Source: Opitutales bacterium (lineage in GTDB: Bacteria; Verrucomicrobiota; Verrucomicrobiia; Opitutales; Cerasicoccaceae). From it: DNA of 47,840 nucleotides. The translations under genes were made by a program, and so were the position numbers. Positions 13,425 through 42,201 of this stretch are shown in pieces (positions within the stretch are counted from its first letter, which is position 1; each line of letters begins with the position of its first letter). The notes beneath the pieces are model-generated. The model ran no database searches and was not told the origin of the DNA. It was given only the letters and a program-made list of their open reading frames with translations. The DNA lies in the NCBI GenBank assembly GCA_050331415.1, contig JBHJGW010000106.1, positions 1 through 47,840 on the forward strand. Direction: 5' to 3'.

Positions 13425-15092
13425 TTGCAAAACTCACCTGCACCAGAATCCACGACAGACTGGCAAGCGGCTTCGCGGGAAGCTCACGCAACGCTCGAAA
13501 ACTGGCTCGCCGACCGCGCCACGCGGCAGGCGGCGCAGCGCGAGCGTCTCCAAGAAGCCTTTTCGTTCGTCCAGCGTCTTCGCGAAGAGGGCGAACCGAC
13601 CGAGTTTACCCACAACCTTGACCAGCCGCCCGAACCCGAGCCGGCGAAAGCTCACGTCAAGGAAGTCGAGCCTTTCGATCCGCAGAAACTTGGCGACTAC
13701 CAGCGCCCCGGCACCGGTTTCCTTCGGGCGGCCGGTGACGCTTCGCCGGGGCTGTCAGCAGAGCAATTGGAGGGGCTCCGCGAGCGTCTTCAGCGGGCAC
13801 TGGACAATTTTGCCATCGACGCACTCGTGGCCGACGCTTCGGTGGGGCCGCGAGTTACGCAGTTTCGCGTCAAACCTGGCTACGGCACGAAAGTCGAGGC
13901 GATTGCCAACCTCGATAAAAACTTTGCGCTCGCATTGGCCTCCGGAGCCGTGCGGATTCAGGCGCCGATTCCTGGCGAGCCTTTCGTGGGCATCGAGGTA
14001 CCCAACCCCACCTCCCGACTGGTCGACCTGCGCGGCGTCTTCGAGGGTGTCGATTGGGCCAACACCGACGGTGACTTGCCTCTGGTGCTCGGCGTCGACA
14101 TTACCGGCCGTTGCCAATTTATCGATCTCGCCAAGGCGCCTCACTTGCTCATCGCTGGCGCGACGGGCTCAGGGAAGTCCGTGTGCATTAACAACCTGAT
14201 CCTTTCCCTGCTCTACCGCTTCCGGCCCGACGAGCTCGAGCTCGTGCTCGTGGATCCGAAAAAGGTCGAATTCGCGATGTACCAGAAGCTGCCGCACCTG
14301 ATCCATCCGGTCGTGGACAAGCCCTCGCAGGCTGTGCAGGCGCTGAAGTGGCTCGTGCGTGAAATGGAAACCCGCTACGAACTCCTGGCGGAAAAGCGCG
14401 TTCGCAATCTCGCCGGCTACAATTCTGCGTCCCGGCGCGACGGATTCGCCCCCCTGCCCTACATTGTCTTGATCGTCGATGAGCTTGCCGACCTGATGAT
14501 GACGTCAAAAGAAGATGTGGAAATGCCGATCGCCCGATTGGCGCAGATGTCGCGCGCGGTAGGCATCCACACGGTACTCGCGACGCAGCGCCCAAGCGTC
14601 AACGTCATCACCGGCGTCATCAAAGCCAACTACCCGGCGCGGGTGGCGTTCAAGGTTTCGAGTCAGGTCGACAGCCGCACCATTCTCGACGCCAAAGGTG
14701 CGGAATCCCTTCAGGGCAAGGGCGACATGCTTTACAACCCGCCGGGTCTTGGCGGCCTGGTGCGCCTGCAGAGCCCGTTTGTCGATGATGACGAAATCAA
14801 CGGCGTCACTGACTTCCTCCGTTCGCAGCTCGAGCCACGCTATCGCGTCGAACTCCACGACGAAGACGACGACGGAACCGGCAGCGCCGGGGCGAACGAG
14901 GACGACCCGCTTATCAAGCAGGCCATCGACGTCATCGCCACCAGCCAGCGCGCCAGCACGAGTTTTCTTCAGCGACGCCTCAAAATCGGTTACAACCGAG
15001 CGGCCAACCTCATCGAAGAACTCGAGAAACGGGGTTACCTTGGCCCGCAAATCGAAAACCAGCCGCGCGAGATTTTCATCCCGCAGCGGTAG
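13425..15092 (+). CDS. FtsK/SpoIIIE-family DNA translocase, soluble (SftA-like, no N-terminal transmembrane domain), TTG start
   Basis: Walker A LLIAGATGSGKSVCINNLI; Walker B LIVDELADLMM. Winged-helix gamma domain (DPLIKQAIDVIATSQRASTSFLQRRLKIGYNRAANLIEELEKRGYLGP). No ATG exists before the ATPase core. The ORF opens at a TTG at 13425. Confidence 0.85.
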   Translation: MQNSPAPESTTDWQAASREAHATLENWLADRATRQAAQRERLQEAFSFVQRLREEGEPTEFTHNLDQPPEPEPAKAHVKEVEPFDPQKLGDYQRPGTGFLRAAGDASPGLSAEQLEGLRERLQRALDNFAIDALVADASVGPRVTQFRVKPGYGTKVEAIANLDKNFALALASGAVRIQAPIPGEPFVGIEVPNPTSRLVDLRGVFEGVDWANTDGDLPLVLGVDITGRCQFIDLAKAPHLLIAGATGSGKSVCINNLILSLLYRFRPDELELVLVDPKKVEFAMYQKLPHLIHPVVDKPSQAVQALKWLVREMETRYELLAEKRVRNLAGYNSASRRDGFAPLPYIVLIVDELADLMMTSKEDVEMPIARLAQMSRAVGIHTVLATQRPSVNVITGVIKANYPARVAFKVSSQVDSRTILDAKGAESLQGKGDMLYNPPGLGGLVRLQSPFVDDDEINGVTDFLRSQLEPRYRVELHDEDDDGTGSAGANEDDPLIKQAIDVIATSQRASTSFLQRRLKIGYNRAANLIEELEKRGYLGPQIENQPREIFIPQR

Positions 15093-15152: not shown

Positions 15153-15626
15153 CTACAGTTGGCTCGTTGCGGAACCGCGGAGCGCATCGAAGTCGCCCCG
15201 CTCGCAGGCCGAAACGAAACCTTCGCAGAAGCCTTTGAGCGTCTCCCACCGCTGGCGGATCGAGGCGGCCTCGTCGTCGGTGATACGCTCGTCGATGCCC
15301 GCTTCGGCGACCTCTGAAATCAGGGTCGCGAACTGCTGAATCAACTCGTTGGTGGCGGGGCTCAGTTCGTAGCGCTTTCTGCCGGCTTCTGGGTTTTCCA
15401 AAAAAAAGCCGCCGCACCGATGGCAGAGCCACTTGATGACGGCGTGGTCCGGGCAGGCATCGTTGAGTTGCGCGGCGCGGTCGAGCGGATTTGGCGATCC
15501 GCTGCCAAAATCACCGGTGGGTTCAGCCCACTTGTATAAAAGCGATGAAGAAATCCCAATCTCCGCCGCGATTTCCTTTGGCGACTTATACGCGAAACAG
15601 GCACGGACGATCTCGTGGGAATCCAC
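15153..15626 (-). CDS. Hypothetical HTH-containing protein
   Basis: 157-aa ORF with HTH-like stretch SPKEIAAEIGISSSLLYKW. Divergent from the yqiJ-like gene. Not antisense to another coding region. Confidence 0.5.
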   Translation of the reverse strand: MDSHEIVRACFAYKSPKEIAAEIGISSSLLYKWAEPTGDFGSGSPNPLDRAAQLNDACPDHAVIKWLCHRCGGFFLENPEAGRKRYELSPATNELIQQFATLISEVAEAGIDERITDDEAASIRQRWETLKGFCEGFVSACERGDFDALRGSATSQL

Positions 15627-15754: not shown

Positions 15755-16426
15755 ATGCTCGAACTGCTGCAAGAGGCCGTTAAGCCCTACAACCTCCCTT
15801 GGACCATCCTGTTGGGGCTCGTCCTGCTCTACTGGCTGGTTCAGATCGTCACGGGCCTCGATTTCGAGGGTGATCTCAACTTCGAAGCCGAGGTTGACAT
15901 GGCCAATCCCGATGGCTTTCTCGACGGCCTGACGCGCTTCCTCCATGTGGGGCAAGTGCCGCTGATGTTCGTCATAGGGGCTTTGGCCCTCGTGGCGTGG
16001 ACCTTTTCGATCGTCGGAAATCTCTTTCTCAACCCCGACCAGGTAGTGTGGCTCGGTTGGCTGCTTGCGGTGCTGGCGCTTATTCCCGCCGTGCTGCTGG
16101 CGCGCTTGCTTCTGGCTCCCGTGGCCGCCTTTTACAAACAACTGGAAACCAAGGAAGCCGGCAACCGCTCGATGGTCGGGCAGACCTGCACGGTCATTAC
16201 CGAGCGCGTCGACGACGTCTACGGCCAGGGCGAGATTCACACCAAAGACGGCACCTTCACCGTCAGCATTCGCCCAGCTGAAAACTGCGAGCAGCTGGAA
16301 CGCGGTGACACGGCCCTGATTATTGACCGCTTTGACGACAAGCTCGTTTACGCGGTGCGGAAGGTTTCCTCGGACCAGCTCGCCATCGCCGACCATCGCT
16401 CGGCGCAGCCCGAATCTTCAGACTAG
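15755..16426 (+). CDS. yqiJ: NfeD/YqiJ-like membrane protein (membrane N-terminus, C-terminal OB-fold)
   Basis: Three TM helices, then a soluble beta-rich C-terminus (TCTVITERVDDVYGQGEIHTKDGTFTVSIRPAEN). Immediately upstream of an SPFH/flotillin gene, as in E. coli yqiJK. Confidence 0.7.
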   Translation: MLELLQEAVKPYNLPWTILLGLVLLYWLVQIVTGLDFEGDLNFEAEVDMANPDGFLDGLTRFLHVGQVPLMFVIGALALVAWTFSIVGNLFLNPDQVVWLGWLLAVLALIPAVLLARLLLAPVAAFYKQLETKEAGNRSMVGQTCTVITERVDDVYGQGEIHTKDGTFTVSIRPAENCEQLERGDTALIIDRFDDKLVYAVRKVSSDQLAIADHRSAQPESSD

Positions 16427-16511
16427 CGATCTGTGCCGGACCTGGGCCACTCTGCCCGCTCGACTTAGTTTTTCTTCTCAAACGTTTCTCAACGCTCAAT
16501 CGTCTCCGCAT

Positions 16512-18602
16512 ATGCACGCACTCGTTCTTGCACAAGCCGAAGCAGTGATCTTTGGCCTCTCATGGGTATGGCTCATCATTATCGGAACCGCTCTGTTTGC
16601 CTTGATCGGTTTTATCCTCAGCGTCTTTCACAAGGCGCAGCAGGGTTATGCCTTTGTGCGCACCGGCTTTGGCGGGACACGGGTTTTCCTGGCTGGCTGT
16701 ATCAGCATACCGGTCCTTCACCGGCTGGAAATCATGGACCTCCGGGTACAGACGCTGCAGCTCGACCGGCGTGGTAAGGACGGCCTCATCTGCAAAGACA
16801 ACGTACGGGCGGATATAACTGTCGGCTTTTATGTACGCGTCAACCCGACAGAGGAAAGCGTCCGCGAAGTCGCCCGCCGCGTGGGCTGCCAGCGTGCCTC
16901 GGACATCGACAAGTTGCGCGAACTCTTTGACGCGAAGTTCTCCGAGGCCCTCAAGACAGCGGGCAAGCAATTCGACTTCGAAGAGCTGTACACCAAGCGC
17001 CTCGAGTTCCGCGAAAAGATCAAGGAGGTCATCGAGAGCGATCTGGAGGCCTACGCCCTGACGGACGTCGCGATCGACTACCTCGAACAGACGGGCGTCG
17101 ATTCCCTCAACCCGAACAACATCCTGGACTCCGAGGGGATCAAGAAGATCACGGATCTGACGGCCAAGCAGATGATCCTCGAAAACGAGATCAACAACAA
17201 CCGCATCCGTACGATCAAGCAAAACGACGTGGAGCGCATCGAGGCAGTCCTCGAACTCGAAAAACAACAGGCCGAGGCGGAAGAAAAGCAGAAGCGCGAG
17301 ATCGCCGTCATCAGTGCACGCGAGGACGCCGAGTCCAAACGCGTGCAAGAAGAACAGCGCCAACGCGCCGAGCAGGCCCGCATCGCTGCCGAGGAGGAAA
17401 TTCAGATCGCCAACCAGAACATGGAGCGGCAGGTGATCGTCGCCGAGAAGAACAAGCAAAAGACCGAGGCGATTGAGACGGAACGGGTCGAGCGCGACCG
17501 CCAGCTCGAAATCGTGGAGCGCGACAAAGTCACCTCCCTCGCCGAAATCGAGAAGACCAAGGCCCTCGAAATCGAAAAGCGCAATATTCAGGACGTCATC
17601 AAGGAGCGCGTGATGGTCGAGAAGACCGTCGTGATTGAGCAGGAGAAGATCAAGGATACCGAGGCCTTCGCCACCGCCGACCGCCAGAAGCGCGTGACCC
17701 TGACCGCCGCCGAAGAAGAAGCCGAGGAAAAGAAGATCAAGCAGCTGAAGGCCGCCGAAGCCAGCAAAGAAGCCGAACAGATGAAGGCCGATGAGGACTT
17801 CTACCGGCAGACCCGCAAGGCCGAAGCCGGAAAGCGCGCCACCGAACTCGCCGCCGAAGAAATGGTTATCAGTGCCGAGGCGGAAGAAACCAGCTCGACC
17901 CGCACAGCCAACGCCAAGAAGACGCTCGCCGAAGCCACCGCCGCTGAAACCGCCGCCACCGGTTTGGGTGAGGCTCAAGTGATGGAAGCGAAAGCCGCCG
18001 CCAAACAGAAGGAAGGCGAGGCCGATGCCCATGTCATGGAACTGAAAGCCGCCGCCGACGCCAAGGGCATCCACCAGAAGGCCGAAGCGATGAAGCTCTT
18101 CAACGAAGCTGGCAAGGAACACGAAGAGTTCAAGCTGCGCCTCGAAAAGGAAAAGACCGTCGAGCTCGAAGCCATCCGCGTCAACGAGCAGATTGCCGAA
18201 TACCAGGCGAAGGTCCTCGGCGAGTCCCTCAAGAACACCAAGGTCGACATTGTGGGTGGCAGCGCGGACTTCTACAGCGAGATCGTTGGTGCCGTTACCC
18301 GCGGCAAGTCGTTCGAGCGCATGCTTGGGGCCAGCCCGGCCCTGGCCGACGTCAAGGAAACCTTCTTCAATGGCGATCCGGAGTACTTCAAGAGCCAGCT
18401 TTCGTCATGGCTGCGCGAATACGGGGTGAATGTCGACACGGTGAAAGACCTCTCCATCGCCGCCCTGCTGATGAAACTCGCCGGTCAGACTGACGACCCG
18501 GCGAAGCTGCAAAAGATTACAAGCCTGCAAGGCCTCGCCGAAAAATTTGGTCTCGCCATGCAACCGGTGGGCAAACTGCTGACGACTGCCGGAAAGAACT
18601 GA
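16512..18602 (+). CDS. yqiK: Flotillin-like SPFH/band-7 protein (YqiK family) with a very long E/K/A-rich coiled coil
   Basis: N-terminal TM helix (VWLIIIGTALFALIGFILSVF). SPFH domain (RTGFGGTRVFLAG...ICKDNVRADITVGFYVRVNP). About 450 aa of EA/KA-rich heptads. Start at ATG 16512. Confidence 0.9.
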   Translation: MHALVLAQAEAVIFGLSWVWLIIIGTALFALIGFILSVFHKAQQGYAFVRTGFGGTRVFLAGCISIPVLHRLEIMDLRVQTLQLDRRGKDGLICKDNVRADITVGFYVRVNPTEESVREVARRVGCQRASDIDKLRELFDAKFSEALKTAGKQFDFEELYTKRLEFREKIKEVIESDLEAYALTDVAIDYLEQTGVDSLNPNNILDSEGIKKITDLTAKQMILENEINNNRIRTIKQNDVERIEAVLELEKQQAEAEEKQKREIAVISAREDAESKRVQEEQRQRAEQARIAAEEEIQIANQNMERQVIVAEKNKQKTEAIETERVERDRQLEIVERDKVTSLAEIEKTKALEIEKRNIQDVIKERVMVEKTVVIEQEKIKDTEAFATADRQKRVTLTAAEEEAEEKKIKQLKAAEASKEAEQMKADEDFYRQTRKAEAGKRATELAAEEMVISAEAEETSSTRTANAKKTLAEATAAETAATGLGEAQVMEAKAAAKQKEGEADAHVMELKAAADAKGIHQKAEAMKLFNEAGKEHEEFKLRLEKEKTVELEAIRVNEQIAEYQAKVLGESLKNTKVDIVGGSADFYSEIVGAVTRGKSFERMLGASPALADVKETFFNGDPEYFKSQLSSWLREYGVNVDTVKDLSIAALLMKLAGQTDDPAKLQKITSLQGLAEKFGLAMQPVGKLLTTAGKN

Positions 18603-18613
18603 TGAGCTCACAC

Positions 18614-18645
18614 GCAGGCTGCTTCACGCTTATGAAGCAGCCCGC
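18614..18645 (+). terminator. Intergenic stem-loop (13-bp stem with 1 mismatch, 6-nt loop) between the flotillin and SHOCT genes; possible attenuator or partial terminator
   Basis: GCAGGCTGCTTCA-cgctta-TGAAGCAGCCCGC, 12 nt after the flotillin stop. No U-tract follows. Confidence 0.35.
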
Positions 18646-18662
18646 CCTGACCCAAGAGTCCC

Positions 18663-19067
18663 ATGCCTGATCTGACCACTGAACTCACGAAGCTCGCAGA
18701 GCTGCACAAAAACGGCGTGTTGACCAACGAAGAGTTTGCCCAGGCCAAGGCAAAGCTGCTCTCCGACGAACCTGACACTCCAGCTGACGCCGAAAGTGCT
18801 GCACGCAATATCCGACCGGAGTTAGCGCGCCCTCCGAGTCGTCACCATCGCCAATACCCGCATCCACCCGTGATCCATCACCAGATTGGGTTCAACGAAG
18901 ATCGCGAAAACTCCTTCGGTAAAGCCGCCAACCGCTTCGTCACGGTTAAGCTGATCCTGGGCATCCTCGGGTTCGTTCTCTTTGCCTGTTTTGCCGGACC
19001 CATCGCCTGTTCGATGCAAGATCGCATGAACTCCGGACCGTCCTTCCGCGGCCCTGGGTTTCCTTAA
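18663..19067 (+). CDS. SHOCT-domain membrane protein (N-terminal SHOCT, C-terminal TM helix)
   Basis: LTKLAELHKNGVLTNEEFAQAKAKLL matches the SHOCT consensus. Hydrophobic helix LILGILGFVLFACFAGPIA. 12 bp upstream of the giant ORF. Confidence 0.7.
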   Translation: MPDLTTELTKLAELHKNGVLTNEEFAQAKAKLLSDEPDTPADAESAARNIRPELARPPSRHHRQYPHPPVIHHQIGFNEDRENSFGKAANRFVTVKLILGILGFVLFACFAGPIACSMQDRMNSGPSFRGPGFP

Positions 19068-19078
19068 TTTCGCAACCC

Positions 19079-22000
19079 ATGACTCAGGGAAAATTAGAGG
19101 GGGGCGCCTATGAGGTCATTCGCAATCGCCTCAATCAGCAGGGGAAAGACTTGCTGGGGCGCCTGCAGGCACTCGATGCCAACCGCAAGGCAGTTTTTGG
19201 CGCGGTCGAGCCCCGGCTACTGACAACCGAGCGCATCCAGACTGCCAATAACTGTATTCCCCGCGGCATGACCGCCCTGCCCGGGGATCGCTTCATCTTC
19301 GGCTACAACGTCCACATTGGCCTCAAAAGCCAGGTCGAGGTCAGTGATGTTTTTTCCCTTTTCCAGTACCATCAGGACGAGCACCACTTCACGCAGGATG
19401 ATCTTTCATTTCTGACCTCCAGCCAGGAATTCGTCCAGGATTTCCAATATCTTTACAAATACTACAAAAAGACGACTTTCGCGAAGTTTATGCGGATGGG
19501 CCCGAACCTGTACATGGCCTTCCGCATCAGTGAGGACATTCGTGACATCAAAGTCTTCAAGTGGCTGCTCAAGGACGACGGGACATTCCAATACCTCGGC
19601 AACCGATTCGACCACGAGTACCAGTTTCCGGAGCAGCACGGCTTCAAGTGGACCCGTGCACACCGCGATATGCAACGCAGCGGTACCCACCCACACATCT
19701 CGATCGAAGACCGGCTTTTTGTGGAGACCGTTGGCGGCGACCTCACGATCAAGATTGAAGACAATACCGATTCTGGCGAAGGGATTTATAGCGAGCCGGT
19801 TAGCTATGCTGACCAGACCCTCGACGACGCCGATATCTACTACGCGGTCGTCGGCAGTCTAATTTTCCTGAAGATCAAGCCTTATCAGGAAAAGCAGACC
19901 CGCTATTTCATCTACAACGAAAAGGTGAAAGATGTGAAGCGCGTCGATTCCATCGAGCACAGCTGCGTCCTGCTTCCGGAAGAGCACGGCGTCATCTTCG
20001 CCGACGGCTTTTACCTGCACAACGGAGACTACAAGCGCTTCGACCCGCGCGAAGAGGCGATGCTCTATGAGCGCACCATCCGCGCGCCGAACGGCGAAGA
20101 CTATCTTTACGTCTTCTATCAGCGTGACCAGGGGGTGTATCAGCTGATGCCCTACAACCTGATCGCTCAGAAGGTCGAGAACCCCATCGAAGCAAATGGC
20201 TATGCACTCTTTGAAAATGGCTCCCTCGCGTACTTCAAAGCACACGACGAAGCCCAAAAGCACCACACCGTCCAAGTTTGGCAGACGCCATTCTCCGCAC
20301 GTGAGATACCAGTTGAAGGGCAGAAGGACAGCTACCTTTTTAAAGTCGGCAACTCGGACATCGTGCGCTGTATGGCCGAGTGCTATGAGATTTACAACCT
20401 GCTGCAACGTGAAGATGCCTACGAGGGCCTGTACCTCGACCTCACCCGCATCGCCACGCGGGTGATCGACAGCTACTTCTGGATCGAGAACGAGGCTGCC
20501 GCCAATCTCAAGGAAGTTCTGTCACAGATTTTGGGCACCGGCCAGGCGGCCATCGACGAGTTCGAAAAGGTCCAGCGCATCCGCAAGGCCACACTTGACC
20601 AGACTCGCCAAGTCCAAACTACCGCCCGCAAGCTCTTTACCGAACTCGACGGAACTCAGCCCGACGACGTTCGCGGCTACGTCGACCGCCTTGCGCGCTT
20701 GCGACGCCTCCGGGGGGAAGTCATTGGACTGAGGGAGCTGCGCTATGTCGACACGAGCCTTTGCGATGAGCTGGAAACGCAGATCGCCGAGCGCTCCGAC
20801 GGGGTCGCCCGGCATACGGTCGAGTTCCTCCTGCAGCCGGAGGCCCTGCAACCCTACCGAGACGCCATCGCTGCGCAGCGCGGCGAAATCGACAGCGCCA
20901 AGACCGCCCAGGAGGCAAAGCAAATTCTGGAGGAACTCGATCAGATCGGTGAGCAGCTCGAGATGCTCATCGAGACTATCTCGAACCTCAAAATCGAAGA
21001 TGCCACCCAGACCACGCGCATCATCGACAGCGTTTCCGAGCTTTTCACCGAACTCAATCAGCTCAAGGGCGCCGCCCGCAATAAGCGGCTCGACCTGATG
21101 CGGGCTGAGGGCGCGGCGCAGTTCCACGCCCAGTTGAAGCTGCTGGAGCAGTCGGTTGCCAACTATCTCGATATCGCCGACACTCCGGAGGCCGTCGACG
21201 AATACCTCACCAAAATGATGGTGCAGCTCGAAGAGCTCGAAGGCACTTACGCCGAGTTCGACGAGTTTATCGAAACCCTCTCGAACAAGCGGGCCGAACT
21301 GTACGACGCCTTCGAAACCAAGAAAGCCGCATTGATGGAAGCGCGGAACCGCCGCGCAACCAAGTTGGTTTCCTCCGCCGAGCGCATTTTAAAGGGCATC
21401 GAAAACCGCGCCCGTTCGATGACGGAGATTGCGGAGATCAACGGTTACTTCGCTGCCGACCTGATGGTCGATAAAACGCGCGACCTTGTCAGCCAGCTCA
21501 AGGAGATCGGAGAGGCGATCAAAGGCGATGATCTCCTGACGCGCCTCAAAACCATTCAGGGTGACGCCATCCGCCAGCTCAAAGATCGACAGGAGCTGTT
21601 CGTCGATGGCGAAAACGTCATTAAATTCGGCAAGCACCGCTTCACCGTCAACACGCAGCCATTGGAGCTGACGACTGTGTTGCGCGAGGGCGAGCTGTTC
21701 TATCACCTATCGGGAACGCAATTTTTCGAGCGCGTCGTCGACGACAGACTGGAGGCGACCCGCGAGGTCTGGGAAATGCAAAGCCCGGCCGAAAATGCGC
21801 AGGTGTATCGCGCCGAATTCCTCGCCTATCAAATGCTCAAGGCCCTCGAAGGCGGGCTCGAGCCGGGGCTGGCCGGTTTCGTGCAGCTCGATGGGGAAGC
21901 GCGCCTGGAGGCCGTCCGCCGTTTCATGGCTCCCCGCTATGCCGATGGGTATACCAAGGGCGTGCACGACGCCGATGCTGAGCGGCTGCTCACCGCGCTG

Positions 22001-25000
22001 GCCAAGATCCATCAGTCCGTCGGCCTCTTGCGCTATTCCCCCGACGCACGCGCCTGCGCCCTCGCCTTTTGGGTCAGCAGTTCCGGAGACAACGGCCTAG
22101 CTGCGCACCTGCGCGAACGCCTCGAAGCCTTTGGCGCGATGCTGCGGGCGTATCCAGAACACAAGACGCAGCGTGTCTACATCAACGAACTGCGCTCCGC
22201 TATCACACGTTTCAATGACGCGCACGGGCTCTTCCCCAACAACCTAGCGAACGAAGCCGCCGAATACCTTTTCTATGAGATCGTCGAGGACGAGCATTTT
22301 TACATCACCCGCGAGAGCGCCAAACTTGCCGACGACTTCAAACACGAGCTTCTCGAACGCCGCTTTCTGGAAAAATTTGATGCCGCTCGGGAGCGGGTGA
22401 AGGGTGACGCCGTCAGCGAATTTCGCATCATCCGCGATTGGCTCGAGGGCCACGCCGCCCACCACAAGCTTCCCCAGGAGCAGCACGAGTTTATTGCCGA
22501 AGCTGCGGCGCACATCCTTCGCGGCGGCGTCGAGCGGCGGCGGATCATCGATGTTCCGATCCAGGTCGACCTCGAAGACTTGCGCGGCGACCACGACAAC
22601 ATCGCCGAAGGCGGCAAGTACCACATGAACTACCTGCACTTTATGGACCGCCTTCGCGCCTTCGAGGCCGGTCCGTTTACGCTTTACCACCAGTTTCAAG
22701 AGCGTAAGCAGGAACTTGTTGAGCAGTTCGCCGAAGAGCTGCGCCTCGGAGAGTTCAAACCGCGCGTGCTCAGTGCATTTGTGCGCAACAAGCTTCTGGA
22801 CACCGTCTATCTGCCGCTGATTGGCGACAACCTCGCCAAGCAGATTGGTGCCGCCGGAGCAGATGCCCGCACCGACCGCATGGGCTTGCTGCTACTGATT
22901 TCGCCGCCAGGCTACGGAAAGACGACGCTAATGGAGTACGTGGCCAATCGCCTCGGCATAACCTTCATGAATGTCAACGGCCCCTCGCTCGGGCACGACG
23001 TCACCTCGCTGGACCCCGGCCAGTGCGCCAACATGGCAGCGCGGCAGGAAGTCGAGAAGATCAACCTCGCTTTCGAGATGGGCGATAACGTGCTCATCTA
23101 CCTCGACGATATCCAGCATACCAACCCGGAGCTGCTCCAGAAGTTTATTTCACTGTGTGACGGCACGCGTCGCATCGAGGGAGTCTACAAAGGCAAGTCC
23201 AAGACCTACGACCTGCGCGGGCGCAAGGTGGCTGTCGTCATGGCGGGTAACCCCTACACGGAAACCGGCGGCAAGTTCCAGATCCCGGATATGCTCGCCA
23301 ACCGCGCCGATACCTACAACCTCGGCGACATTATCGGCGAGAATTCAGACGCCTTCGAGGCCAGCTACATCGAAAACTCGCTCACCTCCAACAGCGTCCT
23401 GTCACGCCTATCGAGCCGTTCCCGCAAGGACGTTTATGCGATCATGCAGATCGCGCGAACGGGCCAGCGAGAGGGCGTCGAATTCGATTCGTCTTTCTCG
23501 ATGGAAGAAGTCAACGAAATGGTCAGCGTCATGAAAAAGCTGATGCGCGTTCGGGACACCATCCTTCGGGTCAACCTGATGTATGTGCGCAGCGCCGCCC
23601 AGGCCGACGACTATCGCACCGAGCCGCCCTTCAAGCTCCAGGGCTCCTACCGCAATATGAACCGGCTCGCCGAGAAGGTGCTGCCGATCATGACCGACCG
23701 GGAAATCGAACAGCTCATTGATGACCATTATGCTGGTGAGTCGCAGACCCTGACTGACGGCGCCGAAGCCAACTTGCTGAAGTTCAAGGAACTCGAAGGC
23801 AAACTGACGCCTGACGAGACCGAACGGTGGGAAGAAATCAAAAAGCGCTTCAAGCGGCAAAAGGCGCTCGGAGGCGCGGGTGATACCGACCCCGTCAACC
23901 GCGTTGTTGCGCAACTCGCCGACTTCAATAATGGCCTTGCCGAACTTGGCGATACCCTAAATGAGGGCACCAAAACTTACGGGGCCACCATGGCAGAAGC
24001 CCTTGCTGGCTTACGCGAGGCGCTTATGGAGGGCTCCCGGAGCCAGCAGCATACCTTGGCCGAAGCACTCGATTCCCTCAGCGGTTCCCTGATGGCCGGC
24101 TCGCAGCGGACGGGCGAAAGCCTCGCCGGGCTTGTCGAAAGCCTGCGCGAAACGATGGCGGCCGAAGCCGCGCGAGGGCGCGAAGGTCAGGCCGAACTGT
24201 CCGCCCGACTCGACGTCATCGCCGAGCGATGGCTGCAACATTCCACAGAAACCGCTTCCGCCCAAAACCTCGCCAGCGAGCGTAACCTTTCGGCTATTAC
24301 GCCGATCCTCTCGCAAATGGCAGAAGGGCTTGCGGCCACCAGCCAGGCACATCGCGAATCGTCGGTACAGACCGCCGAGGCGATTACGCCCCTGCTCAAC
24401 CGCTTGGTCGACAAGCTCGATGCCGCAAGCGATGCCCAGCGCGAAGCGGCGGCGCAAACGGTCGAAGCGCTGGTCCCTTTACTCGGGCGCGTTGCCGACA
24501 ACCTTTCGACGTCGAGCGAGGCACAGCGAGAGGGCGCGCAAGCAAGTGCGGAACGCGCAGGAAAGTTTCTTAGTACGATCGCCGATTCCATTCGCGAAGG
24601 CCAGCTCGCTGCAGCCGAGCAGACCAGCGGCGTCCTGGGAATGATGACACCGCTCCTCGGCAACATCTCAAACCAGCTCGCCCGCATTGCGGAAACCGGA
24701 GCCGCAGGGGGCCGGCAGTCAGAGACCATGGAGCAAATTCTGGCAACCCTTGCACGCGCCGAAACCGAGCAAACGAAAGCGGTTCAAGCTTGGGCGGAAG
24801 ACATGGCCCAGCGCGACAGCGCTCCAGAAGCCCGAACGGCTCCCCTTCCCATGCCGGCGCAGGAAGCCACAGCAGCCCACGCAAGTGGTGGCGCATTGAA
24901 GCTCGACACTCGCACTGAAGCTCTACTGCAGAGCATCCTGATCGCCTTCCACCACCTGTTTCGCAAAACGGGGATCGAGCGACCGCAAGTTTTTACCAGC

Positions 25001-25015
25001 GACGAAACGGAATAG
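19079..25015 (+). CDS. Giant multidomain protein (1978 aa): N-terminal beta-rich domain, extended coiled coils, central AAA+ ATPase (AAA_5/MoxR/dynein-like), C-terminal ~29-aa tandem repeats and an acidic tail
   Basis: Single uninterrupted ORF of 5937 nt. Walker A LLLISPPGYGKTTL (22901-22927). Walker B VLIYLDDIQH (23090-23119). Sensor-1 VVMAGNPY. Antisense ORFs inside are low-complexity. Confidence 0.85.
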   Translation: MTQGKLEGGAYEVIRNRLNQQGKDLLGRLQALDANRKAVFGAVEPRLLTTERIQTANNCIPRGMTALPGDRFIFGYNVHIGLKSQVEVSDVFSLFQYHQDEHHFTQDDLSFLTSSQEFVQDFQYLYKYYKKTTFAKFMRMGPNLYMAFRISEDIRDIKVFKWLLKDDGTFQYLGNRFDHEYQFPEQHGFKWTRAHRDMQRSGTHPHISIEDRLFVETVGGDLTIKIEDNTDSGEGIYSEPVSYADQTLDDADIYYAVVGSLIFLKIKPYQEKQTRYFIYNEKVKDVKRVDSIEHSCVLLPEEHGVIFADGFYLHNGDYKRFDPREEAMLYERTIRAPNGEDYLYVFYQRDQGVYQLMPYNLIAQKVENPIEANGYALFENGSLAYFKAHDEAQKHHTVQVWQTPFSAREIPVEGQKDSYLFKVGNSDIVRCMAECYEIYNLLQREDAYEGLYLDLTRIATRVIDSYFWIENEAAANLKEVLSQILGTGQAAIDEFEKVQRIRKATLDQTRQVQTTARKLFTELDGTQPDDVRGYVDRLARLRRLRGEVIGLRELRYVDTSLCDELETQIAERSDGVARHTVEFLLQPEALQPYRDAIAAQRGEIDSAKTAQEAKQILEELDQIGEQLEMLIETISNLKIEDATQTTRIIDSVSELFTELNQLKGAARNKRLDLMRAEGAAQFHAQLKLLEQSVANYLDIADTPEAVDEYLTKMMVQLEELEGTYAEFDEFIETLSNKRAELYDAFETKKAALMEARNRRATKLVSSAERILKGIENRARSMTEIAEINGYFAADLMVDKTRDLVSQLKEIGEAIKGDDLLTRLKTIQGDAIRQLKDRQELFVDGENVIKFGKHRFTVNTQPLELTTVLREGELFYHLSGTQFFERVVDDRLEATREVWEMQSPAENAQVYRAEFLAYQMLKALEGGLEPGLAGFVQLDGEARLEAVRRFMAPRYADGYTKGVHDADAERLLTALAKIHQSVGLLRYSPDARACALAFWVSSSGDNGLAAHLRERLEAFGAMLRAYPEHKTQRVYINELRSAITRFNDAHGLFPNNLANEAAEYLFYEIVEDEHFYITRESAKLADDFKHELLERRFLEKFDAARERVKGDAVSEFRIIRDWLEGHAAHHKLPQEQHEFIAEAAAHILRGGVERRRIIDVPIQVDLEDLRGDHDNIAEGGKYHMNYLHFMDRLRAFEAGPFTLYHQFQERKQELVEQFAEELRLGEFKPRVLSAFVRNKLLDTVYLPLIGDNLAKQIGAAGADARTDRMGLLLLISPPGYGKTTLMEYVANRLGITFMNVNGPSLGHDVTSLDPGQCANMAARQEVEKINLAFEMGDNVLIYLDDIQHTNPELLQKFISLCDGTRRIEGVYKGKSKTYDLRGRKVAVVMAGNPYTETGGKFQIPDMLANRADTYNLGDIIGENSDAFEASYIENSLTSNSVLSRLSSRSRKDVYAIMQIARTGQREGVEFDSSFSMEEVNEMVSVMKKLMRVRDTILRVNLMYVRSAAQADDYRTEPPFKLQGSYRNMNRLAEKVLPIMTDREIEQLIDDHYAGESQTLTDGAEANLLKFKELEGKLTPDETERWEEIKKRFKRQKALGGAGDTDPVNRVVAQLADFNNGLAELGDTLNEGTKTYGATMAEALAGLREALMEGSRSQQHTLAEALDSLSGSLMAGSQRTGESLAGLVESLRETMAAEAARGREGQAELSARLDVIAERWLQHSTETASAQNLASERNLSAITPILSQMAEGLAATSQAHRESSVQTAEAITPLLNRLVDKLDAASDAQREAAAQTVEALVPLLGRVADNLSTSSEAQREGAQASAERAGKFLSTIADSIREGQLAAAEQTSGVLGMMTPLLGNISNQLARIAETGAAGGRQSETMEQILATLARAETEQTKAVQAWAEDMAQRDSAPEARTAPLPMPAQEATAAHASGGALKLDTRTEALLQSILIAFHHLFRKTGIERPQVFTSDETE

Positions 25016-25103
25016 CCGTTCCGCCGCAAGACCGGTTTACGACCCATTCGTCGAAGTCGCGCGCAGCTCTTCACTTACCGGCGATTTCGCCGAATGGGTC
25101 CTA

Positions 25104-25664
25104 CTATTCGCTTTTGCGGTAAATGCCGGACGCATTGACGACCAGGTTCTCCGGAGTCGAAATCGTGTCAACAGTTCCGGTTACTACGACGTGGTCGAGT
25201 TCCTGAAGGCCGCCAACTCCGCGCAGCGACCCTTGCAGTGGCAACCCTTCGGCGTCGACGAGCTGCACGCTGGCACGGCCCTTAGTGACCTTCTCCGGAT
25301 CCTCGCAACAGGCGTCCCAAGGCGTTGCGCAATGGTCATCGTCGCCCATCTCGTTGCAGAACATAATGCTTTCATCCGCCAGGACCAGGGTGGCGAAGTT
25401 TTCACCGAAGGGATTCATCGTTGCGCCGATTTGCCCTGACACGACGATGAGCTCGCCGGGTTCGGCGCTGGCGCGCGCAGCTTCCACATTGACTGCGCCC
25501 TCGGGCTCGCTTTCCAGCAGGTACATGCTGACCGGGCTTTCCGAAGTCTCGGGGGAGACGTCGCTGGCGGTCCCTTTCGAAGCTGCATTATCGCCGCAAC
25601 CCGCAAGAAATACGGCCAGCGCCGAGACAGCAGCCGTGGTGGTTTGATGGATACATTTATTCAT
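25104..25664 (-). CDS. Cys-rich lipoprotein (186 aa), last gene of the ABC exporter operon
   Basis: Lipobox LAGC after a signal peptide. Cys/His cluster CNEMGDDDHCATPWDACCEDPE. Confidence 0.65.
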   Translation of the reverse strand: MNKCIHQTTTAAVSALAVFLAGCGDNAASKGTASDVSPETSESPVSMYLLESEPEGAVNVEAARASAEPGELIVVSGQIGATMNPFGENFATLVLADESIMFCNEMGDDDHCATPWDACCEDPEKVTKGRASVQLVDAEGLPLQGSLRGVGGLQELDHVVVTGTVDTISTPENLVVNASGIYRKSE

Positions 25665-25704
25665 AACAGGCTATTGTTTTGAGACATTTTGGGGAGGTAA
25701 AAGT

Positions 25705-26856
25705 TCAGGCAGAGCGCAGCGCAACCGGCAGTGGCGCCCGCAAGCATCGCAGAGCGGGAGGAATGGCACCGATGACGCCGAGCCCAAAACCGGTTACCAG
25801 GCCTAGGGTGATCGTATCCGGCGTCAGCAACAGGCGAAAAGTTCCCATGGAGAAATTGACGGTCGTGCCTTCGAGCAAGAACACCGCGAGTGAGGCGGCA
25901 GCCAGCGTGCCCGCCAGCGTTGCCAGCAGACTCTCCTGCAGCAGAGAAAGAAAAATCGCGCCGCGCGAGAAACCCACGGCCTGCAGCGTAGCGATTTCGC
26001 GGATACGGGAAGCAAACGCCGCGTAAAGCAGATTCATGCCGCCGAAGGCCGCGCCAATTCCGACAAGGATCGCGGTCAGCCATGTCATTCCGCGAATCGG
26101 GCCGTAGAAATGCGCCAGCTTTGCGTAGTAATCGGACTCCCGCAGCGCAACGAGCTCGAGGTCGAGCCGCTGACTGGCAAACAGCTCGGCATGCGCAAAT
26201 CCCGATTCGTCTCCCATTCGAAGGACAACTGCGGACAAATTTTCGCGCTGCGTCAGGGTCATCAGGTCGCTGCGCGTGAACCAGACTTCAGACTCCATGA
26301 CAGTGCCAGGGGCGTCGAACACACCCGCGACGGTTAGCGTCTGACCTTCGAAGGCAAGCTCGCTGCCCGGAGTCAAAGCGGAGGCTGGTCTGCCCAGCGA
26401 GCGGTGCGCAAGCCGTCCGACAAGCACCTCGCCCGGGCCGGGATACCCGCCCTCGATAATGCGCACCTCGCGGTGCACTTCGAACGCCGCGGGCGTTACG
26501 CCCCGCAACAGTGCTTGAGAATCGCTGTCGTCGGGAAAGGTCAACGCGCCCATGTATTGAATTTCTCCTGACACCGCGGGCACCCCGGCCCGGCGCTCGA
26601 TACCCCGAATCCCCGCAGTGGCCAGGGTCTCGGTCTGCACAGGGATCTCGCTGCGCTCGACACTCTCCTCGGAGCCTGCCCCTAGGAGGATGACGTTTCG
26701 CGGTGAGCCGGTGGCCTGCAACACGCGCTCCATGCCGTCATTGAACGCCGAAGCAGCAAAGACGAGAAAGACCACCAGAGCGGCACCACCGATCTTTTGG
26801 ATCAGCTGCCCCGGCGCTCGAACCAGGTTGCGAGTTGCGTAGGAAAACGGCAGCAT
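25705..26856 (-). CDS. ABC transporter permease, FtsX/MacB-like
   Basis: FtsX-type topology with a large periplasmic loop. C-terminal helices LATLQAVGFSRGAIFLSLLQE. Confidence 0.8.
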   Translation of the reverse strand: MLPFSYATRNLVRAPGQLIQKIGGAALVVFLVFAASAFNDGMERVLQATGSPRNVILLGAGSEESVERSEIPVQTETLATAGIRGIERRAGVPAVSGEIQYMGALTFPDDSDSQALLRGVTPAAFEVHREVRIIEGGYPGPGEVLVGRLAHRSLGRPASALTPGSELAFEGQTLTVAGVFDAPGTVMESEVWFTRSDLMTLTQRENLSAVVLRMGDESGFAHAELFASQRLDLELVALRESDYYAKLAHFYGPIRGMTWLTAILVGIGAAFGGMNLLYAAFASRIREIATLQAVGFSRGAIFLSLLQESLLATLAGTLAAASLAVFLLEGTTVNFSMGTFRLLLTPDTITLGLVTGFGLGVIGAIPPALRCLRAPLPVALRSA

Positions 26857-26860
26857 GACA

Positions 26861-28015
26861 CTAAGCCCCGCGCAGGGAGCTAACAATGGGTTTGCGGGCG
26901 GCGATCAGGGCGGGCCAGATGGAGGCGACGACCCCCAGTGCAAGCGCCACCAGCAAGCCGTAGGCGACAACCGTCCAGCTTGGCGAGAGCGCTAGCGTCA
27001 GGCCTTCGTTGCCCAAGGTGAAGCGCTTGAGGTGGAAGAAAAGCCCGGCGGAAAGACAGCCGATCAGGCCGCCGGCGAGACCGAGCAGCGCGCCTTCCAA
27101 AATCATCAACCAGCCGATGGACCAGCGGGAAAAACCGATTGTCTGGTAAACCGCGCTTTCTTTGATCCGCGAGCGCGCCGCCAGCAGGAGCGCGTTGGCG
27201 ACCAGCCCCAGCACCGCAAGTACCGCCCCGAGCCCGAGCCAACGGGTGAAGCCGACCAGCTCGATCATTTCACTCGCAGTCTGGGCGAAGAAGGCCTTCT
27301 CGGGGCGGGTGTTTGTCGGAGCCTGATCTGCGGCGAAAAGGTCATCTATGCGCTCGGCCACGGGTTCGAGATCGTCAGGGCTCTCCACTCGAACATTGAA
27401 CTGCGTGACGACCCCGAGACCGACGCGGGAGGCCTGCTGCAGAAACGGAAGGTGCACGTATGCGACATTGTTGTCCTGGGGATTTGGCGACGTAATGATC
27501 CCCGCAACCCACACCCTGACGCCGACAGCCTCAAATTGATCGCCCGGCTCCAAACCCCGCCGCTGCGCAAAATGCTTACCGACGAGCGCCGCATCGCTGC
27601 GGGATTGCCATGACTCGTAAGAGCCTGTCACTACTTCAAGCTCGGGGTTGTACGAGCGAAGGGCGCCAGTTGGGACGCCCCGGAAGGTGATGACGTCAAG
27701 GCTCGCCCCGCAGTTGTTCACCGTGATCTGAATCGGCAGTGCCTCGACGACGCCGTCGATCCGCTCGATCTCACCGAGGTAGTGCTCCGGCAGCCGTGAG
27801 GTCATCGGGCAAAATCGGTTTTCGCGGTAAACGACCAGGGTGTTGTCCTGCGCGCTTGTCTCGGTGACCGTTTTCAGGGACCGCTGCATCGTTTCCACCG
27901 AGGCATAAAGGAACATGCCGACGGCAACGCCGATCACGGTCAGGAGGCTGCGGACGCGGTGCCGCGTCAACTGCTTGAGGGCCAAGCCACCGAGGTGTGC
28001 AAATGGTCGCATCAT
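26861..28015 (-). CDS. ABC transporter permease, FtsX/MacB-like (second copy)
   Basis: Paralogue of the adjacent permease (AVYQTIGFSRWSIGWLMILE). 4-bp overlap with the ATPase gene. Confidence 0.8.
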   Translation of the reverse strand: MMRPFAHLGGLALKQLTRHRVRSLLTVIGVAVGMFLYASVETMQRSLKTVTETSAQDNTLVVYRENRFCPMTSRLPEHYLGEIERIDGVVEALPIQITVNNCGASLDVITFRGVPTGALRSYNPELEVVTGSYESWQSRSDAALVGKHFAQRRGLEPGDQFEAVGVRVWVAGIITSPNPQDNNVAYVHLPFLQQASRVGLGVVTQFNVRVESPDDLEPVAERIDDLFAADQAPTNTRPEKAFFAQTASEMIELVGFTRWLGLGAVLAVLGLVANALLLAARSRIKESAVYQTIGFSRWSIGWLMILEGALLGLAGGLIGCLSAGLFFHLKRFTLGNEGLTLALSPSWTVVAYGLLVALALGVVASIWPALIAARKPIVSSLRGA

Positions 28016-39758: not shown

Positions 39759-41468
39759 TCAGTCCCATGCCCCAAGCAGGCACCAGTTCCCGGTCTCCTG
39801 CCGCAGGCGGAAGCAGCCTTGGGCGGGCAGTTCGACATCCCATTCGGTGGCGTGCCATGGGTCGCCCGTCCACCAGTCACCCGAAGTTTCAAAAGGACCC
39901 CGCGCGGCAATCACCCGACCGGTAGCCGCCAGCGACTCAACCTGTTCGGGCACCGGCGGCGCTGCCTCGGTGAAATTGCGGGCGCTCGAGGCCAGCCCCG
40001 GCAACAGCGGTTGCTCCGTCACCGGGCGGCTCAGGCGCACGCGTGCCTCCAGCGGTGGTCGAAACCGTCGCAAAGTTGGCCCGGCAACCACCATCGGTGG
40101 CCCTGCCCGCTCAATGCCCGTGACGGCCGCCGCCGGGCCGCCCCGCCGAAATTGCGCTGGCGGTTCTGCCGGCAACTCCGCCAAGCCCGAAGCATTGTGC
40201 GGCAACGGCTCGCCAGTACCGGTATCCCCAAGTTTCAGTTGCTGGGAAAAGGTTTCCTGATCCGGTGGTTCGGCGTCGAATTGGTCGGTCACGGGCGTCA
40301 GCTCCTCCGGCAGCGCTTCAAGGCGAAAGACATCATCGCGATGAGTGTCACCGACGACCGGACGCCCAAGATTCTCCGGGCCAACAAGGCCGGCGAGTTC
40401 GTCGAGGGTTTCCGCGAGCCGCCAGGGGTTACGGATTTGAGTGTCGAAGAGCCCTGCCTGTCGTGCCGCCGGATCGATGGGGTCGAGCCGCAGCCACACA
40501 CGCGCGATCGGTCCGCCAACGTGCACGCTGTCGAGGTGATGCTGCAACAGCCGGTGCAGCAACTCGGCGTCGGCGGTGGGCTCGGGTAAACGGATGGTGC
40601 GGCGGTAGTCGTCGGCCTCGACGACACGCAACTCCAGCGTGACCGAACGCGCCACTCGAATCGCGCCCTGAAGCTGAGCCGCCAGGCTTTCCAAGGCGCG
40701 CTTAAGCCAGAAAACGAGTGCCTGCAGGTTCTCCAGCGGCTCCTCCGGCTCGTAGGTTTCGGTGAAATCCGGCTGCCACTCCGCGATCTGCAGGGGGCGA
40801 CAGAAGCGACCGTTGAGCTCATCCCAGACGCGCAGTCCATCAGCACCGAGCCGCTCCCCGAGCGCCTGCCGCGGCAGTTTCGCCACCTCCCCCAGGGTCC
40901 GTACACCCCAGCCTTCGAAGATGGGTAGCCAGCGAGGCGGCAGGTCTCCCAAGGCCAGCGGCAATGCCTCGAGCAGCGCCTGGCGGCGTTCGGGTTCGGG
41001 GATGTACTTAACGCGCGCCACCTCTGCCGCCCGGGCCGCGAGCAGCGCCAGTGCCGGCGTCTCCGCAATGCCTGAGCGTGTCGGCAGCCCCTTTGCCTGC
41101 AGCTCCGGGAGCAGCTCCATCAGCGCTTGCGCCGCCTGCTCGACTTGCGCGGGGTGCAGCCTCAGTGTCAGCAGGCCCGGCGCGGTGGGCTCGATCTGCG
41201 GCGTCAACTGCCAGGCGGTAGCCCACAGCAGGCGCGCGGCCTGCCGCTCAGCCGCCGCAGACGGTTGCAACACCCGCAAAGCCGCGCAACGCCCCAGCGC
41301 CTTGGGCAAGGCCATCCCGCCGGCTACTCCCGCCCGCTGTGCAGCAAGGTTCAGCTCGGCAACCTTGTGGTAATCTCCCGCCAGCACCACCGGCGACCCG
41401 AGCGCCTCGGGCGTCAACCGCAGGGCAGCCCGCAGGGAGAAATCGGGCGTCCAAAGCGAAGCGAACAT
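39759..41468 (-). CDS. imuB: ImuB, Y-family-polymerase-like protein of the imuA-imuB(-dnaE2) mutagenesis cassette
   Basis: Starts MFASLWTPDF, like ImuB proteins. Y-family fold without catalytic acidic residues. Long Pro/Ala-rich C-terminal extension. Immediately downstream of an ImuA-like gene. Confidence 0.75.
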   Translation of the reverse strand: MFASLWTPDFSLRAALRLTPEALGSPVVLAGDYHKVAELNLAAQRAGVAGGMALPKALGRCAALRVLQPSAAAERQAARLLWATAWQLTPQIEPTAPGLLTLRLHPAQVEQAAQALMELLPELQAKGLPTRSGIAETPALALLAARAAEVARVKYIPEPERRQALLEALPLALGDLPPRWLPIFEGWGVRTLGEVAKLPRQALGERLGADGLRVWDELNGRFCRPLQIAEWQPDFTETYEPEEPLENLQALVFWLKRALESLAAQLQGAIRVARSVTLELRVVEADDYRRTIRLPEPTADAELLHRLLQHHLDSVHVGGPIARVWLRLDPIDPAARQAGLFDTQIRNPWRLAETLDELAGLVGPENLGRPVVGDTHRDDVFRLEALPEELTPVTDQFDAEPPDQETFSQQLKLGDTGTGEPLPHNASGLAELPAEPPAQFRRGGPAAAVTGIERAGPPMVVAGPTLRRFRPPLEARVRLSRPVTEQPLLPGLASSARNFTEAAPPVPEQVESLAATGRVIAARGPFETSGDWWTGDPWHATEWDVELPAQGCFRLRQETGNWCLLGAWD

Positions 41469-41511: not shown

Positions 41512-42201
41512 TTAGCTCGCGGCGTAAGCGACTGTGCGCTCTTCGCCTTGGTTTCCGCCTTCAGCAGTTGCCGCAAAACGCTGGGCAGCTTTGCGGTGCA
41601 GCGCCTGGCGGGGCAACTCGAGCTCGGCAAGGGTCCAGCGAGTGTGGATTTCGTGGCGGGCATCCGCACTCGGCGCGAAGGGGCGGTCCGCAAGGCTCAG
41701 GAACGTGCCACTGCGCTGATGAACGAGCCGCTGCAGGCGGTACCAACTCGTGGCGGCGACGCCTTTGGCGGCCACACCCCGGAAATCCGCCGCAACGAGG
41801 CCGAAGTTGGGGTCGCGCAGCAAGATGTCGAGCGCACGCAGCGCCCGGTGCAGATCCGGACAACGCACCCACAGCAGCGCCTCGGCGGCCCCCGGACTCA
41901 AGGTAGCGGGCTCGAACGTGCGGGCAGGGTCGACCAGCGCGCTGAAGCGCCCTTCCACTCGAGCGCGGCGCAAAAGGCCGTCGAGAAAGGTACTTGCGCC
42001 GGTACTGTTACCGCGCGCGATCCACTCCACCCAGCGTTTGGGTGGCAGCGCAAGTTCGCCCCGGGCAGGAGGTGGCGTCGCCTCGGCCTCAACAAGCAAA
42101 TCCTGCGCGCTGCGCAAAACCGGAACCGGTGCGCGCCCACGGGGCACCGTCACCTCACCGCCCCAAGGCATGCTAATCACCGTTTCGCCCGCTTGCGCCA
42201 T
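41512..42201 (-). CDS. imuA: ImuA (SulA/RecA-fold, inactive) of the mutagenesis cassette
   Basis: 229-aa Ala/Arg-rich protein positioned as the first gene of the cassette. Palindromic operator 40 bp upstream. Assignment by context and size. Confidence 0.65.
   Translation of the reverse strand: MAQAGETVISMPWGGEVTVPRGRAPVPVLRSAQDLLVEAEATPPPARGELALPPKRWVEWIARGNSTGASTFLDGLLRRARVEGRFSALVDPARTFEPATLSPGAAEALLWVRCPDLHRALRALDILLRDPNFGLVAADFRGVAAKGVAATSWYRLQRLVHQRSGTFLSLADRPFAPSADARHEIHTRWTLAELELPRQALHRKAAQRFAATAEGGNQGEERTVAYAAS

Follow-up and report, generated by a model that had tools for sequence, protein, structure and literature searches.

A single AAA+ module in a giant propeller/coiled-coil protein encoded next to flotillin in an Opitutales bacterium and many other bacteria

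We analyzed a 47,840-nucleotide stretch of DNA (the window) from an Opitutales bacterium (assembly GCA_050331415.1, contig JBHJGW010000106.1), in which a single open reading frame (ORF) on the + strand (19079-25015) encodes a giant protein of 1978 residues with one AAA+ module. The protein is 100% identical to the GenBank entry 'MAG: DNA repair ATPase [Opitutales bacterium]'. Pfam searches matched DUF3686 (PF12458; aa 24-467, E 2e-179), DUF7902 (PF25472; aa 588-670, E 1e-24) and, toward the C-terminus, AAA (E 3e-9) in this one polypeptide. The giant protein therefore belongs to the Pfam DUF3686 + DUF7902 + AAA family, which is already catalogued and experimentally uncharacterized. Members of this family are 1,650-2,000 residues long and consist of a β-propeller (DUF3686), a coiled coil, DUF7902 and one AAA+ module. 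We describe here the clade and the catalytic residues of the AAA+ module, quantify the synteny of its gene and reject the database name. The giant protein is nearly always encoded next to a gene for a flotillin membrane scaffold and is probably a membrane-remodeling machine rather than a 'DNA repair ATPase'.

The giant gene is the last of a cassette on the + strand. The first gene (15755-16426) encodes a YqiJ/NfeD-like membrane protein of 223 aa with a weak Pfam YqiJ_N match (E 0.0019). The next (16512-18602) encodes a flotillin/YqiK-like SPFH protein of 696 aa, with an N-terminal transmembrane (TM) segment, an SPFH-like region and a long E/A/K-rich coiled coil. Sequence searches of Pfam, NCBIfam and the PDB gave no direct match for this protein, so its flotillin identity was taken from homologues with 50-70% identity, whose annotations read flotillin family, YqiK or SPFH and of which many carry PF01145. 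Between the flotillin and giant genes lies a gene for a small SHOCT-domain protein (18663-19067, +; N-terminal Pfam SHOCT match, E 4.9e-9) with a C-terminal hydrophobic segment, which none of 83 other related loci has. The genes occupying this gap differ among lineages and are unrelated to one another, which marks the SHOCT gene as lineage-specific. Divergently from the cassette (15153-15626, -) lies a gene for a CII-like helix-turn-helix protein (Pfam Phage_CP76, E 8.8e-8). Its gene recurs in the same arrangement in four loci of Verrucomicrobia (L001, L007, L008 and L044) and as an other-strand copy in a locus of Kiritimatiellota (L036), so that its conservation is limited to close relatives; the protein may regulate this cassette specifically.

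Synteny was quantified in the 63 related loci whose upstream sequence extended over 3.5 kb or more; they represent at least seven phyla. A flotillin-like gene lay directly upstream of the giant gene on the same strand in 60 of the 63, and a YqiJ-like gene lay upstream of the flotillin gene in 49. The order of YqiJ/NfeD-like gene, flotillin/YqiK-like gene and giant AAA+ gene last is a conserved cassette. In 15-16 Bacteroidota loci, CesT-like and PspA (YjfJ-like) genes precede YqiJ. On the Pseudomonas fluorescens SBW25 megaplasmid pQBR103 (NC_009444.1, 86968-106305), the cassette consists of genes for a hypothetical protein, an SPFH protein and a 'DNA repair ATPase', and it directly follows a yjfK/L/M/C-like polyamine/PspA-type operon (DUF2491, DUF350, DUF1190 and a glutathionylspermidine synthase-like gene); a phospholipase D gene lies nearby. 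An operon of this kind, with CesT/Tir-PspA, flotillin, a YqiJ/YuaF-type protein with three TM segments and a novel coiled-coil/β-propeller AAA+ ATPase, has been described computationally, together with widespread abbreviated operons without PspA, and a role in assembling or remodeling sub-membrane complexes was inferred for it, with an analogy to Vps4/ESCRT-III (Ravi et al. 2024, mSystems, PMC11237479). The Dokdonia example in that study has the same architecture as the giant protein of the window. The window thus holds the abbreviated form, with the YqiJ and flotillin genes upstream on the same strand; compared to the full operon, it has no PspA or CesT homologue and has the SHOCT gene in addition. 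The system as such is not of a new kind, the family having a Pfam entry and the operon a published computational description. For the ATPase, Ravi et al. provide neither an experiment nor a clade assignment nor an analysis of catalytic residues.

The family is widespread. A word-indexed search returned more than 4680 homologues of the giant protein, and the AAA region alone retrieved 973 cluster representatives, 392 of them at E <1e-30. At least 591 GTDB species-representative genomes encode the same architecture; they come from Verrucomicrobiota, Planctomycetota, Bacteroidota, Desulfobacterota, Clostridia, Kiritimatiellota and Acidobacteriota, and copies from Gammaproteobacteria, Deinococcus and actinomycetes were seen in a plasmid/chromid collection. 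An earlier note, made from the letters of the window, had called a single AAA_5 module embedded in a coiled-coil giant unusual for bacteria, which these numbers contradict. For conservation analysis we aligned 27 diverse full-length members with 31-48% identity to the window protein, and all 27 had the same DUF3686, DUF7902 and AAA architecture.

The same distribution bears on the possibility that the cassette is an anti-phage defense or other conflict system, in which the giant NTPase would be coupled to a membrane effector. The large size of the protein, its NTPase module, the adjoining CII-like regulator and the variable genes between the flotillin and giant genes could be read in this way, and in PADLOC the C-terminal tail weakly matched ZorA tails (E 5e-5) and the P-loop weakly matched IetA (E 0.003). 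However, these matches cover only low-complexity coiled coil and about 30 residues around the P-loop, and those to ZorA are probably compositional. In at least 591 species the locus is conserved, chromosomal and single-copy, and has housekeeping-like neighbors. The family had no copy in 50,697 phage records and was found in only 13 of 72,556 plasmid records, most of these 13 being megaplasmids or chromids, and the conservation of the AAA core is unusually high for a conflict system. With PADLOC matches that are compositional or confined to the P-loop, no phage copies and rare plasmid copies, we rejected the defense reading as very unlikely.

The AAA+ α/β (P-loop) domain was delimited to aa 1266-1420 (22874-23338) by Pfam matches, a structure model and conservation. 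It carries the Walker A motif SPPGYGKTT (aa 1275-1283, nt 22901-22927; key Lys K1281, nt 22919-22921), the Walker B motif VLIYLDDIQH (aa 1338-1347, nt 23090-23119; D1343-D1344, nt 23105-23110), the sensor-1 segment VVMAGNPY (aa 1386-1393; N1391, nt 23249-23251) and the segment NRADTYNL (aa 1408-1415), in which R1409 (nt 23303-23305) occupies the Arg-finger position. The two Walker motifs, the sensor-1 Asn and the Arg of NRAD, all picked out in the earlier note, are present at these coordinates and near-invariant in about 250 relatives. Motifs were counted by regular-expression scoring in 257 family members with a Walker A. PPGYGKTT occurred in 252 of them, DDIQH likewise in 252, with DDVQH in 3 more, and PDML[AS]NRAD in 238, the window protein having a single Arg in PDMLANRAD. 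The count for MAGNPY (183/257) is an undercount, because the expression often caught an upstream xxGNNV site first. Judged from the sequences, the retention of these motifs is far beyond chance. In the alignment of diverse members, K1281, D1343, D1344, N1391, R1409 and R1525, a lid residue discussed below, were invariant (27/27). The α/β domain is also the best-conserved part of the giant protein, with a mean major-residue frequency of 0.77, compared to 0.71 for a short segment before it, mostly 0.33-0.56 for other regions and 0.10 for the C-terminal tail.

An AlphaFold2 model of aa 1167-1616, made with 25 aligned family members, had a mean pLDDT of 78.9 and a pTM of 0.68. It showed an α-β-α core with strand order 5-1-4-3-2, a helical lid after it and a pre-sensor-1 β-hairpin. 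Strand β1 (aa 1269-1274) is followed by the P-loop, α1 and β2 (aa 1295-1300). A conserved and largely non-helical segment of about 18 residues (NGPxLGHxVTSLDP), with no hairpin, connects β2 to α2. Next come α2, β3 with Walker B, α3, the hairpin, β4 ending at sensor-1 N1391, a short α4 ending at R1409, and β5. The hairpin, RIEGVYKGKSKTYD (aa 1365-1378, 23171-23212), is formed by strands at aa 1365-1370 and 1373-1378 (DSSP strands 199-204 and 207-212 of the model) with a local pLDDT of about 77-86. R1364 (nt 23168-23170), at its base, did not vary among the 27 diverse members or among 42 segment sequences. The segment DLRGRKVAV (aa 1378-1386) forms the end of the hairpin and the start of β4. The earlier note had grouped it with NRADTYNL as Arg-rich segments after sensor 1; NRAD does hold the invariant R1409, but DLRGRKVAV, being part of the hairpin and of β4 in the model, is not an arginine-finger segment. 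Residues 1421-1616 (23339-23926), delimited by the secondary structure of the model, form an enlarged helical lid and a helical C-terminal part of the module. They include a long helix (aa 1475-1507) that precedes the candidate sensor-2 helix and is itself a candidate pre-sensor-II insert.

Pfam searches of the region were led by PF00004 (AAA), with 37.8 bits over aa 1271-1363 and an alignment ending at position 95 of the 131 of the profile. AAA_5 (PF07728) scored 24.3 bits against a cutoff of 22 and aligned aa 1271-1394 to positions 2-125 of 139, that is, from β1 through sensor 1. RuvB_N scored 23.7 bits and aligned only about 50 residues around the P-loop. By the Pfam clan rule, the higher score of PF00004 would make this an AAA region and not an AAA_5 one. 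Among the 27 diverse members, PF00004 and AAA_22 matched 27 each, AAA_5 26 (E <0.01) and RuvB_N 23. Of the two Pfam profiles named in the earlier note, PF07728 was recovered and AAA_3 (PF07726) had no match in the giant protein. The leading PF00004 match and the database annotation would suggest a divergent classic-clade AAA domain (p97/Vps4/FtsH-like). The best sequence matches in the PDB, to VAT, p97, Cdc48 and Rix7, fit this explanation, and the analogy to FtsH inside the HflK/C cage makes it functionally attractive. However, the sequence matches cover only about 40 residues (β1, P-loop, α1 and β2) and stop before Walker B. The classic clade carries an Arg pair, RPGR (the R-x-x-R second region of homology), and an Ala at a lid position; the giant protein has one Arg in place of the pair and an invariant Arg in place of the Ala. 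The modeled pre-sensor-1 hairpin is foreign to this clade, and such a hairpin is reportedly missing in the classic, clamp-loader and initiator clades. As modeled, the AAA+ module is clearly not of the classic clade and belongs to the hairpin-bearing superclade; a classic-clade origin is therefore unlikely. This bears out the earlier note, which had set the motifs apart from the classic-clade pattern, in that the hairpin is modeled between α3 and β4 and a single Arg stands where the RPGR pair would be.

Within the hairpin-bearing superclade, the assignment is closer. The pre-sensor-1 hairpin, a helix-2 insert, a pre-sensor-II insert and a VWA/MIDAS partner are traits of the MoxR/PS-II-insert clade. 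In structural comparisons, the model matched NorQ best (Z score of 13.3, with 216 of 254 residues aligned), followed by CbbQ (12.8), LonA (12.3), dynein (12.1), midasin (11.8), ClpA (11.6), the best classic-clade structure (10.9), McrB (10.6), a MoxR protein (2r44, 9.2) and RuvB (9.1). Foldseek searches of the PDB could not tell the clades apart, with MCM, RuvB, Cdc48, NorQ, Lon and ClpA all found at E of about 1e-5. When the AAA region was searched against the PDB by sequence or by profile, the alignments to p97 and RuvB were confined to some 40 residues at the P-loop. The MoxR-like look of DDIQHTNPELL and GNPYTE..G..F.IPDMLANR is an impression and not a result, because a profile of the segment from Walker B to the Arg finger found no AAA+ protein in the PDB. 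The related loci offered one RuvB as the only other AAA+ gene for clade reference. On the model, MoxR/AAA_5 is the best single match, narrowly ahead of Lon/Clp-type structures. The AAA_5 type claimed in the earlier note is thus partly supported. In its favor are the gathering score passed by AAA_5, the pre-sensor-1 hairpin, the AAA_5 matches in 26 of 27 members and the invariant Arg residues at the Arg-finger (R1409) and candidate sensor-2 (R1525) positions; against it are the higher score of PF00004, the Asp-Asp Walker B and the Lon/Clp structures interleaved with MoxR-type ones at a small Z margin, and two MoxR hallmarks, the helix-2 hairpin and the VWA partner, are missing or not visible.

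A different assignment, to the HCLR clade (Lon/Clp/HslU/RuvB-like), would make the module a protein or nucleoprotein remodeler with a cis-acting sensor-2 Arg. The model has the pre-sensor-1 hairpin without a helix-2 hairpin, as this assignment would have it; RuvB_N matched 23 of the 27 members, RuvB was among the PDB sequence matches, and the QGSYR-NMNR motif resembles the RuvB/Clp sensor-2 helix. On the other hand, the AAA_5 profile spans the hairpin and sensor 1, as opposed to the roughly 50 P-loop residues of RuvB_N; the aromatic pore loop of Clp and Lon has no conserved counterpart, and a large extra lid helix precedes the candidate sensor 2. We regard the HCLR assignment as possible, though rather doubtful.

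The catalytic residues were largely intact. The signature motifs of the AAA+ superfamily, namely Walker A, an hhhhD[DE] Walker B, sensor-1 N1391 and R1409, are all present and invariant in the family. The second acidic residue of Walker B, D1344, is Asp in every member, and Glu was never seen among the 257, so the family departs from the canonical Walker-B Glu of the AAA+ superfamily with DD instead of DE. The earlier note had raised degeneracy of key catalytic residues as a point against its reading; the Walker A Lys, the sensor-1 Asn and the Arg residues are intact, but the Walker-B Glu is an Asp. Asp-Asp Walker B motifs occur in switches of the DnaA and DnaC type, and the Walker B motif of DnaA is DDIQ. 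The DDIQH of the family resembles it and is unlike the DE of MoxR, Lon and classic AAA+ proteins. By analogy, the Asp-Asp Walker B suggests slow, regulated hydrolysis. In the lid, the invariant QGSYR motif opens a helix after the extra long helix, and its R1525 (nt 23651-23653) sits, in the model, where sensor 2 would be expected after a pre-sensor-II-type insertion; it is a candidate sensor 2. R1409 and R1525, whose intactness the earlier note had asked about, are thus both retained, with roles assigned by position. The β2-α2 loop contains no conserved aromatic residue across the family alignment, which argues against a polypeptide-threading unfoldase.

The likeness of DDIQ to DnaA, the Pfam description and NCBI name, both 'ATPase involved in DNA repair', and an FtsK gene 4 kb upstream in the window could favor a real DNA repair or DNA-handling ATPase, with SMC/RecN-like coiled coils, a DnaA-like Walker B and an incidental linkage to flotillin. 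However, Pfam and NCBIfam searches found no DNA-binding, nuclease, SMC or ABC domain in the giant protein. The FtsK neighbor is not conserved in related loci, and the partners that are conserved, flotillin, YqiJ and PspA, are membrane proteins. A pre-sensor-1 hairpin, as modeled here, is not known from the initiator clade, and we found no literature placing the family in a DNA repair context. Of all the explanations weighed here, this is the least probable. The name 'DNA repair ATPase' is unsupported, with no DNA-related domain and no conserved DNA-related neighbor.

Our preferred reading is that 22871-23490 encodes the nucleotide-binding core of a single AAA+ module in a propeller/coiled-coil giant that remodels flotillin/PspA assemblies by ATP; we put its probability at roughly 0.55. 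The giant protein would oligomerize via the AAA+ module, and its propeller and coiled coils would dock onto sub-membrane assemblies of flotillin, and of PspA in loci that have it. By binding ATP and hydrolyzing it, probably slowly, the protein would then assemble, disassemble or reshape these scaffolds in envelope stress, an action that may be likened to that of MoxR-type chaperones or of Vps4 on ESCRT-III rather than to that of a polypeptide-threading unfoldase. Several observations weigh against this reading. Three of the 63 loci have no flotillin neighbor, and we infer physical contact between the giant protein and flotillin from gene order alone. The model has no helix-2 β-hairpin, which is typical of MoxR systems, and no VWA/MIDAS match was found in the giant protein or its neighbors, in the window and three related loci (L001, L002 and the pQBR103 locus, L084). 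With its Asp-Asp Walker B, the module could also hydrolyze ATP at a very low rate or serve purely as a nucleotide switch, and the Arg-finger role of R1409 and the sensor-2 role of R1525 follow from their positions. Finally, in the literature on DUF3686, PF12458 and the flotillin-linked 'DNA repair ATPase' we found no experimental work on any member.

Known systems were compared with the giant protein. The MoxR family (NorQ, CbbQ and RavA; AAA_5/AAA_3) consists of stand-alone ATPases of about 300 residues with a DE Walker B, as opposed to the DD module embedded here in a much longer propeller/coiled-coil protein. Compared to the AAA_5 modules of MoxR, dynein and midasin, the giant protein lacks a modeled helix-2 hairpin and a VWA/MIDAS domain. 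HflK/C-FtsH pairs an SPFH membrane scaffold with a nearby-encoded AAA+ ATPase, FtsH lying inside the HflK/C cage, and offers a functional analogy of an AAA+ machine within or on an SPFH assembly. However, FtsH belongs to the classic clade and is a protease that is anchored in the membrane and has pore loops, whereas the giant protein is of a different AAA+ fold class and has no TM segment and no protease domain. Vps4 is likewise an ATP-driven remodeler of a sub-membrane polymer, and PspA is co-operonic with the giant protein in Bacteroidota and some Proteobacteria; Vps4, however, belongs to the classic clade, carries an MIT domain and threads its substrate, whereas the giant protein is of another fold class, has no MIT domain and in the window has no PspA beside it. 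Two papers on SPFH proteins (Hinderhofer 2009 and a 2026 Pseudomonas study) do not mention the ATPase.

Outside the AAA+ module, the giant protein begins with a long helix (aa 10-40), followed by the N-terminal β-propeller-like domain that forms the core of DUF3686 (aa 46-405, 19214-20293, +). The middle region (aa 406-1230) is mainly helical and coiled-coil, and contains the helical DUF7902 segment (20840-21088, +; PF25472), which was matched in all 27 diverse members. A conserved island was observed in aa 831-1230 (21569-22768), with GxHRFxVNxQPLxLT at about aa 851-865 and GVHDxDA at aa 961-966; G851, F855, G961, H963 and D966 are invariant. The island had no Pfam family match; it could represent one more small domain or what is left of a degenerate NTPase. 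The C-terminal tail (aa 1621-1978, 23939-25012, +) is low-complexity, A/E/Q/S-rich, helical and internally repetitive. It has 72% gaps and the lowest conservation in the family alignment, and exceeds the tail of most relatives by about 200-300 residues.

The rest of the window is ordinary chromosome, with genes for a TonB receptor, a sulfatase, FtsK, a MacB-type ABC exporter, a homocysteine methyltransferase, an Opp-type ABC transporter, a Y-family polymerase-like protein and ZnuA. The FtsK/SpoIIIE ORF (13425-15092, +) has the α, motor and γ domains and measures 555 aa from its first listed start codon, which is short for FtsK; the N-terminal membrane domain is not included from that start. 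The polymerase-like protein (39759-41468, -; 568 aa) has only weak Y-family matches (IMS and IMS_C), and a 229-aa ORF (41512-42201, -) lies directly upstream of its gene on the same strand. The pair recalls the ImuA-ImuB mutagenesis cassette, and no DnaE2-sized ORF follows it. The AT skew is strongly positive (0.12-0.20) on the + strand over 16000-28000, covering the flotillin and giant genes and continuing through the minus-strand MacB/FtsX genes.

The function of bacterial flotillins and the turnover of their assemblies are still debated. With its highly conserved sequence and a gene that directly follows those for YqiJ and flotillin in hundreds of species, the giant ATPase is an obvious candidate for the energy-dependent partner. 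The family can be studied in tractable carriers, such as Proteus mirabilis, Vibrio campbellii, Pseudomonas fluorescens with pQBR103, Hymenobacter and flavobacteria. The unsupported 'DNA repair' label, an ATPase site that is intact but DD, and a predicted fold that is MoxR/Lon-like and not classic give handles for experiments. We tentatively go one step further than the preferred reading, with considerably less confidence, and propose that the giant protein may be dedicated to assembling or disassembling the flotillin scaffolds of bacteria by means of ATP, in a role like that of Vps4 or NSF, in which the MoxR-like AAA+ ring with its DD Walker B would act as a slow switch and the propeller would grip flotillin or YqiJ. 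If this is true, the giant protein would be the missing energy-consuming component of bacterial membrane-microdomain dynamics in many phyla.

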